In this document: piece after piece, positions 12,522 to 47,396 of the stretch
How positions within the stretch are numbered: the stretch's first letter is position 1
How the letters are laid out: every line of letters starts with the position of its first letter
NCBI GenBank assembly: GCA_965199855.1
Contig: OZ241326.1
Location: 576,001 to 640,000 of the forward strand
DNA length: 64,000 nt
Source: a bacterium
GTDB lineage: Bacteria; UBA8248
Direction: 5' to 3'
Notes under the pieces: generated by a model
What the model was told of the DNA's origin: nothing
Databases searched by the model: none
The model's input: only the letters and a program-made list of their open reading frames with translations
Translations under genes and position numbers: made by a program

Positions 12522-14233
12522 TGGCGTTCCGGATGGACAGGCGCGCCTACGCCGACATGTTCGGCCCCACGGTCGGGGACAGGGTGCGGCTCGCGGACAC
12601 GGAGCTCTTCATCGAGGTCGAGGAGGATCGCACCGTCTACGGCGATGAGGCGAAGTTCGGCGGCGGCAAGGTCATCCGCGACGGCATGGGGCAGTCGCCC
12701 ACCGAGACGCGCGGCGCGGACGCGCTCGATCTGCTCATCACCAACGCGCTGATTCTCGACTACTGGGGGGTGGTGAAGGCGGACGTCGGCGTCAAGGACG
12801 GGAAGATAGCCGGCGTCGGCAAGTCGGGGAATCCGCACCTCATGGAAGGGGTGGACATGATCATCGGCGCCGCCACGGAGGTGCTGGCGGGCGAGGGGAT
12901 GATACTCACCGCGGGCGGCGTCGACACCCACATCCACTTCATCTGCCCCCAGCAGATAGACGAGGCGCTCTCCTCGGGCGTCACCACCATGTTCGGCGGG
13001 GGAACCGGCCCCGCCACGGGAACGAACGCCACCACCTGCACCCCCGGCGCCTGGAACATCGCCAGAATGCTCCAGGCGGCGGAAGCCTACCCCATGAACG
13101 TCGGCTTTCTGGGAAAGGGCAACGCCTCGCGCCCGGAGCCTTTGGCGGAGCAGATTCGCGCGGGGGCGGCCGGGCTGAAGCTCCATGAAGACTGGGGCAC
13201 CACGCCCGCCGCCATCGACTGCTGCCTGTCCGTGGCGGACGAGATGGACGTGCAGGTGTGCATCCACACCGACACGCTCAACGAATCGGGCTTCGTCGAG
13301 ACCTCCATCGCCGCGCTCGGGGGCAGAACCATCCACACCTACCACACCGAGGGGGCGGGCGGCGGCCACGCGCCCGACATCATCCGCGTGTGCGGCGAAG
13401 CGAACGTGCTGCCCTCCTCGACGAACCCCACGCGCCCCTTCACGGTGAACACCGTGGACGAGCACCTCGACATGCTCATGGTGTGCCACCACCTGGACGG
13501 CGGGATTCCCGAGGACGTGGCCTTCGCCGAGTCGAGAATCCGGGCGGAGACCATCGCGGCCGAGGACGTTCTCCACGACATGGGCGCGTTCAGCATGATG
13601 GGCTCCGACTCCCAGGCCATGGGCCGCGTGGGCGAGGTGATCATCCGCACCTGGCAGACGGCGGACAAGATGAAGCGCCAGCGCGGCGCGCTGCCCGAGG
13701 AGCGCGGCGCGAACGACAACCATCGCGCGAGGCGCTACGTGGCGAAATACACCATCAACCCGGCGATCGCGCACGGAATTTCCGATTACGTGGGCTCGAT
13801 CGAGGCGGGGAAGATGGCGGACCTGGTTCTCTGGAAGCCGGCCTTCTTCGGCGTGAAGCCCGACGTGGTGGTGAAGGGCGGCCTCATCGCGCGCGCGGCG
13901 ATGGGCGACCCCAACGCCTCCATCCCCACCCCGCAGCCCGTTCTGGACCGGCCCATGTTCGGCGCGATGGGAGGGGCGGTCGGCCCGACGGCCTGCGCCT
14001 TCGTCTCGCGGGCGGCGGCCGACGCGCGGGTGGGAGACGCGCTGGGGCTCGCCAAAATCGTGGCGCCGGTCTCGAACTGCCGGGGGATCGGCAAGAAGGA
14101 CATGCGGCTCAACGACGCCCTGCCCGCGATCGACGTGGACCCCGAAACCTACGTGGTGCGGGCGGACGGCGCGGCGCTCGCCTGCGAGCCGGCGAGCGAG
14201 CTGCCCATGGCGCAGCGGTATTTTCTTTTCTAG
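12521..14233 (+). CDS. ureC: Urease subunit alpha
   Basis: [54 protein letters not shown]. Confidence 0.99.
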
Positions 14234-43581: not shown

Positions 43582-44586
43582 GTGGCGAAGCGCGCGGTCT
43601 GGGTGGGAACCCCCTTCATACTGAATTTCGAGGATCCCATGGAGATGTTCCGGCCCCTGGTGGACGAGGGGCTGGAGGTGCGCCTGGACGAGTGCCGCGG
43701 CCACATGCCCGAGGAGGACGTAATCGCCTGCCTGCCGGACGTCGAGGCCGTCATCGCCGGCGCCGAGCCTTACACCCGGAAGGTCTTGGAGAGCGCGCCC
43801 GCGCTTCGCGTCATCGCGCGCGCGGGAGTGGGCGTGAACAACGTTGACCTTCCGGCGGCCACGGAGCGGGGAATTCTCGTCGCGAACGCGGCGGGCCGGA
43901 ATTCAGAATCGGTGACGGAGCACCTCTTCGGCCTCATGCTCGGGGCGTGCCGGCGCATCGGCTGGCTGGACGCCGGGATTCGCAGGGGCCTCTGGCGGGA
44001 GATTCAGCCGCCGATGCGTCCCCTGAACGGCATGACGCTGGGGATTCTCGGCTTCGGAAACATCGGAAAGCAGGTGGCGAAAAGAGCGGTCGCCTTCGGC
44101 ATGAAGGTGATCACCCACGACATCGATCGGGACGAGGAGGCCGCCGCCGAGCTGGGCGCGCGGTTCGTGGGGCTGGAGACGCTGGCGCGCGAGTCGGACT
44201 ATCTCACCTGCCACGTTCCCCTGACGCCTGAGACCGAGCGCGTCATCAACCGCGAGATTCTGCGCGTGATGAAGCCGGGCGCCTTCGTGTTCAACACCTC
44301 GCGGGGAGGCGTCTTCGACCTCGACGCGCTCGCCGAGGCGCTTGCGGAGGGCGTCATCGCCGGCGCGGGGCTGGACGTGTATCCCGAGGAGCCGCCCGAT
44401 CCCGCGCATCCGGTCTTCTCGCTCGAGAACGTCGTGCTGACGCCGCACCTGGGCGGGCGCGGGGAGGACGCGATTCGCAACACCCTGCGCCACGCGGCGG
44501 GGTGCGTCCTGGCTTTCTTTCAGGGGACGCGGCCGCCCACGCTCGTCAACCCGGAAGCCTGGGAGGCTTCGCGCCGGCGGGGCTGA
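43582..44586 (+). CDS. D-isomer-specific 2-hydroxyacid dehydrogenase (SerA-like)
   Basis: RAGVGVNNVD, GFGNIG, HVPLTPET, NTSRG, LDVYPEEP, TPHLG. Confidence 0.92.
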   Translation: MAKRAVWVGTPFILNFEDPMEMFRPLVDEGLEVRLDECRGHMPEEDVIACLPDVEAVIAGAEPYTRKVLESAPALRVIARAGVGVNNVDLPAATERGILVANAAGRNSESVTEHLFGLMLGACRRIGWLDAGIRRGLWREIQPPMRPLNGMTLGILGFGNIGKQVAKRAVAFGMKVITHDIDRDEEAAAELGARFVGLETLARESDYLTCHVPLTPETERVINREILRVMKPGAFVFNTSRGGVFDLDALAEALAEGVIAGAGLDVYPEEPPDPAHPVFSLENVVLTPHLGGRGEDAIRNTLRHAAGCVLAFFQGTRPPTLVNPEAWEASRRRG

Positions 44587-44718
44587 GCCCTCCCTGCGAA
44601 GCGCCGCTGACGGCGTAGTGGAGAATCCTCGCCGCCCGCCCGGGCTCCTCCGCCGCGGCCACGACCGCGCCGCGCTCCTCCTGAAGCGCCGATGACGCGA
44701 AAGAATGACGCGGAATGA

Positions 44719-44749
44719 AAAGCCCCGGCCCAATGAGGGCCGGGGCTTT
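44719..44749. terminator. Bidirectional Rho-independent terminator
   Basis: AAAGCCCCGGCCC-aatga-GGGCCGGGGCTTT. Confidence 0.8.
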
Positions 44750-44821
44750 CGCATTTCGGTGACCTGGTGGGGATTCGCCTGGGCGAAGATGAACCCGGGA
44801 ACCTCCCCGCGGCTCTCTCCC

Positions 44822-44860
44822 CTAGGCGCCGGCCACCTCGTCCCTACAGTCCGTTTTCAT
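44822..44860 (-). CDS. 12-aa peptide MKTDCRDEVAGA
   Basis: Preceded by GAAAGGAGGTGATCC (44865-44879), complement of canonical 16S 3' end. Confidence 0.55.
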   Translation of the reverse strand: MKTDCRDEVAGA

Positions 44861-44891
44861 ATTGGGATCACCTCCTTTCCGACGTAGCCCC

Positions 44892-44920
44892 ATCATGCCG
44901 GAAGAGGAGAGAAAAGTCAA
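44892..44920 (-). promoter_or_regulatory. Sigma70-type promoter TTGACT-N17-CATGAT
   Basis: Reverse strand reads TTGACT TTTCTCTCCTCTTCCGG CATGAT. Confidence 0.6.
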
Positions 44921-45013
44921 GAGGGGGCGCGGGGCGATCTCTGGCGGCCGCGCCTCGTCCGTGATATACCCGTTCCCGCGCGGCCGGGGAGGCTTCCGCG
45001 CCTCCGATCCGCC

Positions 45014-45106
45014 GGAGAGGTGTCCGAGAGGCCGAAGGAGTACGACTGGAAATCGTATAGGCGCCCACAAGGCGCCTCGAGGGTTCGAATCCCTCCCTCT
45101 CCGCCA
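45014..45106 (+). tRNA. tRNA-Ser (anticodon GGA)
   Basis: GGAGAGG/CCTCTCC acceptor stem, TACGA-CTGGAAA-TCGTA anticodon arm, long variable arm, GGTTCGAATCC, encoded CCA. Confidence 0.97.
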
Positions 45107-45133
45107 GCGAATCGTCCGCCGCGCCCGGAGGAA

Positions 45134-46162
45134 TCACCCGAAGAAGAGCTCGGCGGTGTCGAAGAAATCCTCCCGCAGCTCGTTCACCTTTCCGGATACC
45201 TCGTCCAGCGGAACCGGTTTGATGTCGCGCCCCTGAAGCGCGGCCATGACGCCCCAGGTTCCCTCGTGGGCGAATTCGCTCGCCCGCGCGCCCAGGCGGG
45301 TCGCCAGCACCCTGTCGTAGGGGACGGGGGAGCCGCCGCGCTGGATGTGCCCCAGGATGACGGCGCGCGTGTCCACGCTCATCCGGTCGCCGACTTCCTT
45401 GGCGAGGTATTCGCCGATGCCGCCGAGCTGGACGTGCCCGAACTCGTCCTGCGCCTGGCTTCGCGTCACGTAGTCCTCCATGCCCTTGGGCTTCGCGCCC
45501 TCGGCCACCACCACGTTGGCGAAGTTGCGCCCCCGCGCGAAGCGCGCCTTGAGGATATCGACCACCTCGTCGATGTCGAAGGGCCGCTCGGGCACGAGGA
45601 TGAGGTCGGCGCCGCCGGCGATGCCCGCGTAGGTGGCGAGCCAGCCCGACTGGCGCCCCATGACCTCGAGGATGATGACGCGGTCGTGCGCCTCGGCCGT
45701 GGTGCGCAGGCGGTCGATGGCGTCGGTGATGACGCCCACGGCGGTGTGGAAGCCGAAGGAGTAGTCCGTCAGCCCGATGTCGTTGTCGATGGTCTTGGGC
45801 ACGCTGATGACGTTGAAGCCCTCCCCGTTCAGGAAGGCGGCGACGCTCAGCGTGTCGTCGCCCCCGATGGCGATGAGGCCGTCGATGCGCGAGGCGCGCC
45901 AGTTTTCCCGGAGCTTGTCGAGCATGGCGGGGTCCTTCATCGGGTTCGTCCTGGAGGACCCCAGAATGGTGCCGCCCTGGTCGAGGATGCCGGAGATCAT
46001 CGGCCCCGTGATTTCCACGAAGTCCGCGTTCACCAGCCCGCGCCACCCCCGGCGCACGCCCAGGGTGGAGCTTCCGCGATGGAAATTCGAGGCTGTCACC
46101 GCGCGGATGACCGCGTTCAGTCCGGGGCAGTCGCCGCCGCCGGTCAATACTCCCAGCTTCAT
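45134..46162 (-). CDS. pfkA: 6-phosphofructokinase (PfkA family)
   Basis: LTGGGDCPGLN, GGTILGSSR, IGGDDT, PKTIDND, EVMGR, LGHIQRGG. Confidence 0.95.
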   Translation of the reverse strand: MKLGVLTGGGDCPGLNAVIRAVTASNFHRGSSTLGVRRGWRGLVNADFVEITGPMISGILDQGGTILGSSRTNPMKDPAMLDKLRENWRASRIDGLIAIGGDDTLSVAAFLNGEGFNVISVPKTIDNDIGLTDYSFGFHTAVGVITDAIDRLRTTAEAHDRVIILEVMGRQSGWLATYAGIAGGADLILVPERPFDIDEVVDILKARFARGRNFANVVVAEGAKPKGMEDYVTRSQAQDEFGHVQLGGIGEYLAKEVGDRMSVDTRAVILGHIQRGGSPVPYDRVLATRLGARASEFAHEGTWGVMAALQGRDIKPVPLDEVSGKVNELREDFFDTAELFFG

Positions 46163-46299: not shown

Positions 46300-46773
46300 T
46301 CAAGAGGCGCGTCTTTTGATTTCGCCTCCGTTTTTCTCTCCAAGGTGCACGATGTCCCAATCGCCCCACTGCCGCTTGAGATATTCCGCAACGAGGCGGC
46401 GGTGGCAGTGGTGGGGCTGGTCTTCACTGCACAGCAGGCAGCCGTTTTCCACGACGTCCTTGGGGGTTGTTTCCTCGATGCGCCGTTCTCGCATCAATCC
46501 CATGAATCGGGCTTCATAGGTTTCCCAGTCGATCAGCTTCTTCCTGTAGTCGCGCAGCAGATCCCGCGTGGGCGCAAGCTGCGGCAGATGCGCGTAGTCC
46601 ATTCCGCAAATTTCCCGCAGGAAATAGGACAGATCGTCCCGTTTGGCGAAGCCGGCGAGTTGCGAGGCGTTGTTCAGCCGCACGTCAATGATTCGCCGCG
46701 CGCCCGACGCCCGCAGGAGATGGAAAAAATCACCGGCTGATTTTCTGGTGAAGCCGATGGTGAAAATGTTCAT
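46300..46773 (-). CDS. DUF488 family protein
   Basis: IFTIGFT.KSA, IDVRLNN.SQLAGFAK, LAPT, LLCSEDQPHHCHR. Confidence 0.88.
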   Translation of the reverse strand: MNIFTIGFTRKSAGDFFHLLRASGARRIIDVRLNNASQLAGFAKRDDLSYFLREICGMDYAHLPQLAPTRDLLRDYRKKLIDWETYEARFMGLMRERRIEETTPKDVVENGCLLCSEDQPHHCHRRLVAEYLKRQWGDWDIVHLGEKNGGEIKRRAS

Positions 46774-47396
46774 GCGCTTCGGGCGGCGGCGCGGGCGGCT
46801 TGGGCCTCGTCCTGGCGTGAGATTCGCCGCGCCTGTCTGGCGATAACTCTCGCAATCCGCTGGTCGCGCCGTTCAAACAGCTCCCCCTGCTGCGGGTCGC
46901 CATACAGGGCGAGCAGCCGATCCATGGCGTCGAAATGCGTCTCCAGCCTCCCGTCGGCGAGGATGTGTCTCACCTTGACGCCTCGCGCCTCAAGAGCCCG
47001 CGCCACCAGCAGGGCGCGATGGCACGCCAGAGGCTCTTTCTCCGCGCACATGAGCGCGAGGCGGCGATCGGCGGCGTCGTGAACAATCCGCTCCAGTCCG
47101 CGCCGGAATGGTTCGGTTCTACTGATGCGGTCGTAACAGACGCGCCCGTTTTCATAGCAGGAGGGATCGTCCGATCTGCCTCCCAATTCCAGTCCATGGA
47201 ACGCGTACTCAATCCCGCTCGCGGCGAGGCCGCGCGCCAGCGGCTCGCGGTTGAATTGCGGATTGTGACGGCTGAACGGCGCCGAGCGGACGTCCGCCAG
47301 CGCGGCGACGCGATGCCGCCGCAGCAGCGCGGCGAACGCTTCAAGGGTATGCGTGGAATGGCCGATGGTGAGGATGTTCTCGTCAATTACGCTCAT
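46770..47396 (-). CDS. DUF488 family protein
   Basis: LTIGHSTH, DVRSAPFSRHNPQFN, LGGR, LMCAEKEPLACHR. Confidence 0.9.
   Translation of the reverse strand: MSVIDENILTIGHSTHTLEAFAALLRRHRVAALADVRSAPFSRHNPQFNREPLARGLAASGIEYAFHGLELGGRSDDPSCYENGRVCYDRISRTEPFRRGLERIVHDAADRRLALMCAEKEPLACHRALLVARALEARGVKVRHILADGRLETHFDAMDRLLALYGDPQQGELFERRDQRIARVIARQARRISRQDEAQAARAAARSA

Follow-up and report, generated by a model that had tools for sequence, protein, structure and literature searches.

Several kinds of bacterial RNA can be compared with the locus described here. Dual-function small RNAs (sRNAs) with a translated small open reading frame (ORF) include RNAIII/hld, SgrS/SgrT, and SR1/SR1P. Another example is STAB-SD, a 5' mRNA stabiliser of B. 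thuringiensis cry3A. Leader-peptide attenuators are represented by trpL, the ermC leader, and the actinobacterial whiB7 upstream ORF, and in the frameshifting of prfB an internal element resembling a Shine–Dalgarno (SD) sequence lies ahead of the stop codon. Finally, Ms_IGR-5 (Rfam RF02471, "Actinobacteria sRNA") is said to have been first reported in M. smegmatis by Li et al. in 2013. The subject of this work is an sRNA locus on the minus strand of a 64,000-nt stretch of DNA (positions 576,001–640,000 of contig OZ241326.1, assembly GCA_965199855.1; the window), from a bacterium of the UBA8248 lineage whose genome is a single contig of 3,043,534 bp with one 16S gene. By homology, the RNA very probably belongs to the Ms_IGR-5 family; for the window itself a catalogued family is extended, and the RNA is not novel in kind. 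On balance, we favour the reading of the locus as an independently transcribed, structured sRNA of about 168 nt that would be gated by translation, the act of translation mattering and the peptide not.

Family membership and distribution

At gathering thresholds, Rfam returned no match at the locus. With E-value reporting, RF02471 aligned end-to-end over 44705–44885 of the minus strand (181 nt against a 184-position model; 27.1 bits, E = 3e-4), and the blocks come in the order of that family: extended SD, GAGGUGGC, GCGAAUYCC, and CAG-N-UCACC. A search of 51 genomes of the window's phylum with RF02471 gave 20 matches at E ≤ 0.01, and three sibling-genus genomes of the same taxonomic family exceeded its cut-off (55.1, 49.5, and 47.5 bits); there were 0 matches in 14 named control genomes. 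The opposite direction was covered by a model, R1, built from 24 sequences of the window's phylum exclusively (alignment A1). A degenerate pattern that fixed the first SD box (SD1) and GAGGTGRC was scanned against a contig collection and found at least 120 loci; R1 was run on 100 of them and matched 98, with 93 at E ≤ 1.5e-5. The two pattern hits giving no R1 match (L095 and L127) were taken as chance. Weak matches were obtained at L067, L070, L078, L073, and L084, and those of L084, L073, and L078, which score 13.7–20.4 bits, were set aside as well. When 20 loci were scanned at the Rfam gathering threshold, RF02471 passed in 7 (L099, 185 bits; L092, 175.5; L062, 125.9; L048, 85.2; L180, 53.6; L179, 53.5; L085, 52.3), and no other family covered any of the elements in these 20 loci. 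The R1 E-values on loci accepted by Rfam were 1.9e-10 for L099 and L092, 4.8e-9 for L062, and 1.5e-5 for L048. Because a model made from the phylum alone matches Rfam-accepted loci, the window RNA would be a diverged member of RF02471 missed by the curated threshold. The initial annotation had recognised no named family, a point that has to be revised in the light of RF02471; by its own criterion, a match to a described family counts against novelty.

The likeness to RF02471 extends to the whole architecture. The extended SD, a short frame with a fixed stop, GAGGUGRC, the GAAUYC bulge, the YCACC strand, and the 3' hairpin are found in the same order and spacing, with helices P0 and P1 (described below) and a similar overall length, and detection works both ways, from RF02471 to the phylum and from R1 to accepted members. 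On the other hand, the window sequence is sub-threshold and its host phylum is not Actinomycetota. The Rfam consensus helix between the SD and GCUGCC is not kept, since it gives non-standard pairs in the window, and was not used; the alignment supports P0 and P1 instead. The T-run terminator and the divergent tRNA neighbour are features of the window's lineage, unlike RF02471 at large.

BLAST detected the RNA in 22 of 22 same-genus genomes, plus G000 itself (E ≤ 5e-45), and in one sister-genus genome (E = 1e-18). With R1, 44 of 51 genomes of the window's phylum were matched, once each apart from weak extra hits in two genomes, and 43 of the 51, those with a strong match, have a single copy of the RNA. 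The distribution counts are samples, in which a non-match means not found among the genomes searched, not absent. In the phylum holding Mycolicibacterium, R1 matched 61 of 151 evenly drawn genomes (55 of 145 when six unpublished ones, G063, G110, G182, G150, G080, and G144, are left aside), which is an undercount because the centre genome carries the RNA yet failed the stricter filters. The corresponding figures are 16 of 121 in the phylum holding a Blastocatellia metagenome-assembled genome (MAG) and 39 of 101 in that holding a Zixibacteria MAG. Among the matches listed, the pattern hits bear mostly Actinomycetota titles, namely Mycobacterium, Mycolicibacterium, Rhodococcus, Streptomyces, Kitasatospora, Nocardioides, Solirubrobacterales, and Acidimicrobiia. 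As judged from these homologies, the family spans four phylum-level groups: Actinomycetota, Acidobacteriota, a Zixibacteria-type phylum, and the window's phylum. In places, the public titles are at odds with the classification on which the sampling was based: a "Heliobacteriaceae" MAG shares the Blastocatellia phylum sample, and an "Ignavibacteria" MAG shares the Zixibacteria sample (L055/G060 and L047/G062).

Ribosome-binding boxes, short frame, and helices

The 3' end of the sole 16S gene of this genome reads ...GGATCACCTCCTTTCTAAGG, and SD1 is therefore a perfect complement to it over 15 nt. Genome-wide, identical copies of the 15-mer are confined to the rDNA and the sRNA locus, with two more sites at one mismatch; outside rDNA, its 12-mers are present in 2–4 copies and its 10-mers in 5–26. 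SD1 is therefore the longest SD-type match in the genome, and, short sub-words being common, the ordinary SDs of the genome would end at about 9–11 nt. Within the window there is one SD1 match at no more than two mismatches, versus 0.11 expected. The core AAGGAGGTG-R-Y-C is conserved throughout the family, and the box starts 6 nt from the predicted 5' end of the RNA. That it is nothing more than a chance match, or a stray fragment of rDNA, has practically no probability left: the identity to the 16S-tail complement is all that speaks for this explanation, the sequence matched is that complement and not rDNA itself, and the locus is kept in all 22 genus genomes and in 44 of 51 of the phylum, with covariation. 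In three loci of the Acidobacteriota sample (L169, L171, and L172), SD1 has one extra base (GGAGG-A/T-TGATCC), the frame has 16–17 codons, and P0 and the fixed stop are retained.

A 10-nt spacer separates SD1 from an AUG that opens a frame of 12 codons. In 35 of 35 sequences of the window's phylum this frame reads M-[KTR]-x-x-C-x-x-E-V-[AT]-x-x-stop; its length there is 12 codons, or 14 in a second taxonomic family through a 6-nt in-frame insertion. The last five codons are GAG GUG RCN NNN NNN, directly before the stop. This layout has been followed in alignment A2, which holds 99 sequences from 100 sources (17 from the window's phylum and 82 from the contig collection, matches at E ≤ 1e-5). 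Start and stop lay outside the scan pattern. The stop stands exactly five codons from the G of GAG in 97 of 99 sequences, be it TAG (78), TGA (12), or TAA (7), and a canonical start in the frame of the stop is found 7–14 nt after GGAGG in 91 of 99, versus 8 and 1 in the other frames. In an independent set found by the model and not by the pattern (L166–L182, n = 17), the stop rule holds in 17/17 and the start is present in 16/17, over distances of 32–58 nt between SD1 and a second box, SD2, and frames of 10–18 amino acids. Of the 91 sequences that have a start, 67 place it 10 or 11 nt after GGAGG of SD1; in SD2, the fixed frame sets a distance of 11 nt between GAGG and the stop, and of 8 nt between GAGG and the last sense codon. 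Taken together, the conserved sequence signals make it likely that the 12-codon frame is translated. TAG accounts for 78 of 97 stops in the family versus about 38% in the long ORFs of the genome, a preference that yields no conclusion on RF1 because the rows are related and the stop sits in a helix (P2).

The peptide itself has been followed across lineages. It reads LIDLWTCEVAAR in mycobacteria, MNSSRTREVAAR in Nocardioides, MYEIRTREVAAG in Streptomyces, MSSNHSEVAET in Acidobacteriota, and LKSDKREVAAT in the Zixibacteria-type phylum, so that residues outside E-V-[A/T] are unconserved between phyla. Codon 7 encodes D, S, G, or R in the window's phylum and R or C in actinobacteria, and these substitutions are the compensatory ones seen in P0. 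In the 35 phylum sequences, GAG and GUG show zero variation at their wobble positions, and the nucleotides of the E-V-[A/T] codons are paired in P1. The compensated changes at codon 7 and the wobble-fixed codons of P1 point to selection acting on the RNA and on whether and how far it is translated, and not on the product. A gene for a 12-residue effector peptide, with the RNA structure incidental, could account for the strong SD, the conserved frame, and the presence of Cys5 and E-V-[A/T] in 35/35 phylum sequences. It fits poorly with a length of 10–18 residues, with wobble-fixed, paired codons in the one stretch shared between phyla, with an untranslated 3' half conserved to the same degree as the frame, and with neighbours among which no modifying or export gene was found, at this locus or at the others compared; a micro-peptide gene, which the initial annotation had entertained as a signalling peptide, is thus quite improbable. 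The peptide MKTDCRDEVAGA is hydrophilic, as had been noted there in setting it apart from type I toxins, and the opposite strand of the locus has no promoter-like site in a scan of 44000–45600; a type I toxin–antitoxin assignment was rejected on these two grounds. The locus resembles the dual-function sRNAs as a stand-alone gene with a ribosome-binding site and a short conserved frame beside a conserved RNA structure. It differs from them in that the frame is far shorter (10–18 codons) and overlaps the core helices, the peptide is unconserved, and the SD of the family reaches 14–15 nt.

Six sequencing runs were listed as containing the stretch, none of them on record as RNA. Transcription and ribosome binding of relatives have been reported elsewhere. 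A match to Ms_IGR-5 is listed among the transcripts detected in S. lividans (PMC8079986) and S. avermitilis (PMC8780764), the IGR-5 transcript (ncMSMEG15794c) was detected in M. smegmatis (PMC10454040), and ribosome-protected reads lie on Ms_IGR-5 homologues of M. abscessus and M. smegmatis (PMC4974804). Such footprints would fit ribosome binding as well as translation. They are compatible with a non-translated 30S trap, sponge, or hibernation RNA, the leading idea of the initial annotation, in which the 15-nt duplex with the 16S tail would hold subunits without productive translation; that SD1 is the longest 16S-tail complement of the genome also speaks for it. A pure trap would have no use for the conserved in-frame start or the precisely placed stop, and the gene is single-copy in 43 of the 51 phylum genomes, those giving a strong match. 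The conserved start and stop argue for translation over mere 30S trapping, and the trap appears a good deal less probable than translation.

RNAalifold on alignment A1 gave four elements, P0, P1, P2, and the terminator. In A2, 93.3% of cells form standard pairs versus 33–45% when the partners are slid by 1–3 columns, and the covariation score is 0.555, a value reached by 0 of 500 shuffles, versus at most 0.081. All four pairs of P0 have compensatory changes in the 99 sequences (for example, AU:59 GC:23 CG:17 and CG:64 AU:17 UA:15 GC:3), as do 11 of 11 pairs of P2 (helices 3–5). P1 joins GGUGRCYG (codons 8–11) to CRG-N-YCACC, with one bulged base in the window; it is 96.6% paired over the 99 sequences and near-invariant, and its variable pair (A1 columns 61:137) reads AU:13 GU:5 GC:5. 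The homologue search and the covariation analysis thus confirm that the SD, the ORF, and the structure are conserved in relatives. Of the hairpins proposed in the initial annotation, GAGCC/GGTTC belongs to the supported P2 domain, and TTCGCC/GGCGAA competes with the covarying P2 helix.

A two-state fold had also been proposed, in which GGTCACC pairs either with the SD or with GGTGGCC inside the ORF. The second pairing is borne out by covariation (A-U, G-U, and G-C swaps), and the first is weakly supported, appearing in the single-sequence minimum free energy (MFE) fold. The SD1–GGUCACC pairing is beyond the reach of covariation because the SD is invariant, and the same-genus variants of the 3' strand, GGCCACC, GACCACC, and GCCCACC, weaken it. 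In folding models, the mean unpaired probability is 0.50 for SD1 and 0.58 for the start, both thus more open than SD2 at 0.22, and 0.36 for the RNA as a whole, and forced folds of 27 phylum sequences place the SD2 state lower than the SD1 state in 27/27, by 0.1–11.3 kcal/mol (0.9 in the window). A switch between the two states is thermodynamically plausible in these models, and the comparative support is for the SD2 state alone. The bulge of the window contains a genus-specific CCACC (44766–44770, minus strand; same-genus loci L007–L025) that does not occur in other genera; in the single-sequence MFE fold this CCACC is bound to GGUGG of SD2 and GGUCACC to SD1, so that the alternative fold is fully closed.

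Another explanation for the same elements is protective binding. According to it, a ribosome on SD1 and the mini-frame would shield the RNA from 5'-end-dependent decay, and the 3' domain (P1/P2 with the GAAUYC bulge) would work as a base-pairing or protein-binding sRNA independently of translation. The position of SD1, 6 nt from the predicted 5' end, the conservation of the bulge and the 3' strand across phyla, and the retention of SD1 in the 8 of 99 members without a canonical start are in accordance with it. The comparison with STAB-SD is pertinent, as both carry, close to a transcript's 5' end, a long SD-type complement of the 16S 3' end that can retain a 30S subunit; the sRNA, unlike STAB-SD, continues with a start codon and a conserved frame, and it is its own gene and not an mRNA leader. 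Protection does not account for a stop that keeps to one codon position in 97/99 and 17/17 sequences despite changes among TAG, TGA, and TAA, nor for a start that remains in frame over SD1–SD2 distances of 32–58 nt. Moreover, with P1 located within the frame, the 3' domain cannot be independent of translation. We regard protection as unlikely, if the least unlikely of the rivals considered in this work.

Predicted transcription unit and neighbouring genes

The coordinates of the elements are collected in Table 1.

Table 1. Features of the sRNA locus in the window (positions in the 64,000-nt stretch)
Feature	Position	Strand	Basis or remark
-35 box TTGACT	44915..44920	minus	TTGAC[T/A] invariant in 20/20 same-genus sequences; present in other genera
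-10 box CATGAT	44892..44897	minus	17-nt spacer to -35; GATGAT, GATAAT, and similar hexamers at the equivalent place in relatives
Predicted sRNA transcript, about 168 nt	44718..44885	minus	5' end predicted at A44885, 3' end at the U run
P0 5' strand CGUC	44881..44884	minus	Pairs with GACG 44842-44839
SD1, GAAAGGAGGTGATCC (RNA: GAAAGGAGGUGAUCC)	44865..44879	minus	15 nt, complement of own 16S 3' tail
12-codon ORF ATG..TAG, MKTDCRDEVAGA	44822..44860	minus	ATG 44860-44858, TAG 44824-44822
P0 3' strand GACG, codons 7-8	44839..44842	minus	RNAalifold and A2 pair counts
SD2 box GAGGUGGC with P1 5' strand GGUGGCCGG, codons 8-11	44829..44839	minus	GAGGTG invariant in 35/35 phylum sequences
P2 domain	44776..44828	minus	CGCCU/AGGCG closing helix holding the stop codon, and a variable extended hairpin
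Conserved 3'-side bulge AAUCCCCA (family motif GAAUYC)	44768..44775	minus	Conserved columns; unpaired AAUYC(C) between P2 and P1
P1 3' strand CCAGGUCACC	44758..44767	minus	Resembles the GAUCACC stretch of the 16S tail (anti-SD mimic)
Terminator hairpin and U run	44718..44749	minus	13-14 bp, then UUUU; helices 6-8 covary in the 99-sequence alignment
tRNA-Ser(GGA), divergent neighbour (context, not part of the RNA)	45014..45106	plus	ARAGORN

The promoter TTGACT-N17-CATGAT is of the sigma-70 type, with 9 of 12 consensus matches. Two promoter-like sites were found in 44000–45600, versus a mean of 0.0 across 50 shuffles. The predicted 5' end, A44885, lies 7 nt after the -10 box, and conservation across phyla starts at this same position (column 5 of alignments A1 and A2). 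Folded alone, the RNA has an MFE of -84.3 kcal/mol (z = -3.84). A simple terminator scan did not list the hairpin at 44749–44718 because its T run is short. The outline drawn in the initial annotation holds well here: the promoter is supported by the scan, the shuffles, and the same-genus conservation, its 13-bp terminator and its divergent tRNA-Ser correspond to features of Table 1, its SD agrees in all 15 nt with the 16S end of this very genome, and the 12-residue ATG..TAG ORF is present with conserved start and stop. The free-standing sRNA gene, with a promoter and a terminator of its own, the extreme SD, and the short ORF, is in fact kept in 35/35 phylum sequences and far beyond.

The absence of a downstream gene to attenuate had been pointed out as well, and it was corroborated: no gene lies downstream on the same strand at the locus, and the next gene, for a 2-hydroxyacid dehydrogenase (43582–44586, plus strand), is convergent, 130 nt beyond the terminator and without overlap. 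An ORF running on from the terminator (43903–44754, minus strand) has no Pfam family match. Further upstream of the sRNA, a phosphofructokinase gene occupies 45134–46162 (minus strand). A divergent tRNA stands beside the sRNA in 10 of 12 loci of the window's phylum (Ser-GGA in 8, Cys-GCA in 2), and in other phyla a tRNA was adjacent in 0 of 26 loci. Elsewhere the neighbours are a class IV aminotransferase and a THAP4-like protein (two mycobacterial loci), gyrA (two Solirubrobacterales loci), or, in other loci, an OPT transporter, a TPR protein, or a subtilase. No neighbour gene is conserved across the lineages compared, and the gene context gives no clue to function; this variability fits a trans-acting gene. 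It is accordingly very improbable that the locus regulates a neighbour gene, be it in cis as a leader or attenuator or as an antisense RNA. The short frame, the alternative pairings, and the terminator do resemble leader-peptide attenuators, in which translation of a short frame likewise decides between alternative pairings ahead of a terminator, and in some actinobacterial loci a same-strand gene follows the sRNA. The window, unlike those systems, has no regulated downstream gene and no regulatory run of codons, with the end of the frame fixed and not its codon content; the convergent orientation of the next gene and the change of neighbours between lineages are further points against a role in cis. 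A transfer-messenger RNA (tmRNA) or tRNA-like identity was likewise set aside, ARAGORN giving only tRNA-Ser in the window and Rfam no tmRNA match.

Two other observations were made in the window. Rfam RF02514 (5' ureB small RNA) matches 12685–12965 (minus strand) with 96.4 bits against a gathering score of 40, which probably points to the region of a urease ureB gene. At 46300–47396 (minus strand) there are two adjacent ORFs, 157 and 208 amino acids long; the first matches DUF488, the second resembles it by eye, and they may be a paralogous pair.

Proposed translation gating and its meaning for the family

The way in which translation would gate the RNA is proposed tentatively, as a model built on the conserved elements. 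The 5' half would act as a very strong translation start, with SD1, a 10-nt spacer, and AUG driving the 12-codon frame. In the free RNA, SD2 would be held in P1 by the anti-SD-like 3' strand, the 5' end would be held on codons 7–8 (P0), and the stop codon would lie inside P2. A ribosome travelling from SD1 to the fixed stop would have to open P0, P1, and the base of P2; this opening would free the conserved 3' strand and the bulge, and P1 would re-form after the release of the ribosome. As read from the sequence, a ribosome at the end of the frame could hold SD2 on its anti-SD in an initiation-like register, a seating that is possible because the 11 nt from GAGG to the stop equal the usual distance of 10–11 nt from SD1 to the start. 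This arrangement recalls prfB, with an SD-like box in frame at a fixed short distance upstream of the stop; in the sRNA, the 8 nt between GAGG and the last sense codon resemble the spacing at initiation, versus the very short one of prfB, and there is neither a slippery site nor a downstream frame.

Several points weigh against the favoured reading of the locus as a whole, family membership and translation included. Alignment A2 was fitted to the structure of the model, which favours that structure, and its rows are related; its 82 rows from outside the phylum were found with the pattern, so the invariance of SD1 and GAGGTGRC in them is by construction. SD1 is only moderately open in the folding model (0.50), and the single-sequence MFE fold pairs it with the 3' strand GGUCACC. 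The score of 27.1 bits for the window is below the curated RF02471 cut-off of 45. Eight of the 99 members have no canonical start, mostly those labelled Solirubrobacterales/Solirubrobacteraceae, so translation may be dispensable in those members. In them (L061, L065, L086, L091, L109, L102, L053, and L087, the first five being records labelled Solirubrobacterales, Solirubrobacteraceae, or uncultured Actinomycetes), CTC, CTT, ATA, ATC, ACG, or CTG stands in place of the start, with SD1, the open frame, and the fixed stop retained; they may use near-cognate start codons or may have lost translation. A different register of the short frame relative to GAGGUG is seen in weak R1 matches (16–29 bits) bearing Latescibacterota (L067, L088, and L146) or Planctomycetota titles (L073 and L078), which have SD1 and GGAGGTGGCTG. 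Their stop is within about 1 nt of its usual place relative to the box, and they may be remote relatives keeping just the position of the stop. In the literature searched, no target, partner, or phenotype is reported for Ms_IGR-5, and no target search was made. No functional study or described anatomy of Ms_IGR-5 was found either; the founding paper and all supplements lay outside the search, so some of the anatomy may already be in print. Searches by SD-box, peptide, and locus-name strings gave nothing on Ms_IGR-5 beyond the reports cited above.

Within the reach of these searches, what is new is the breadth of the family, over four phylum-level groups, and its anatomy, that is, the extreme SD, the micro-frame with a fixed stop, SD2 held by an anti-SD-like strand, and P0. 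A catalogued family is extended into a phylum missed by its curated model, and it is far wider than its name; this suggests that the RF02471 model and its consensus structure could be rebuilt from a broader seed. The conserved features are all related to the ribosome (a 14–15-nt complement of 16S, an in-frame start, a fixed stop, and SD2 held by an anti-SD-like strand), and the family is therefore a good candidate for a ribosome-interacting regulator, which can be tested in tractable carriers such as M. smegmatis and Streptomyces. A more speculative proposal, to which we give a rather low probability, is that Ms_IGR-5 RNAs are a pan-phylum ribosome-gated switch, with two SD boxes and an internal anti-SD mimic, that reads out free-ribosome or termination capacity. 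In such a switch SD1 would capture a 30S subunit, translation would proceed to the stop, and the freed anti-SD-like strand and GAAUYC bulge would either close SD1 or act on other RNAs or proteins. If this holds, the family would represent a novel type of ribosome-sensing riboregulator, shared by Actinomycetota (among them mycobacteria and streptomycetes), Acidobacteriota, the Zixibacteria-type phylum, and the phylum of the window.

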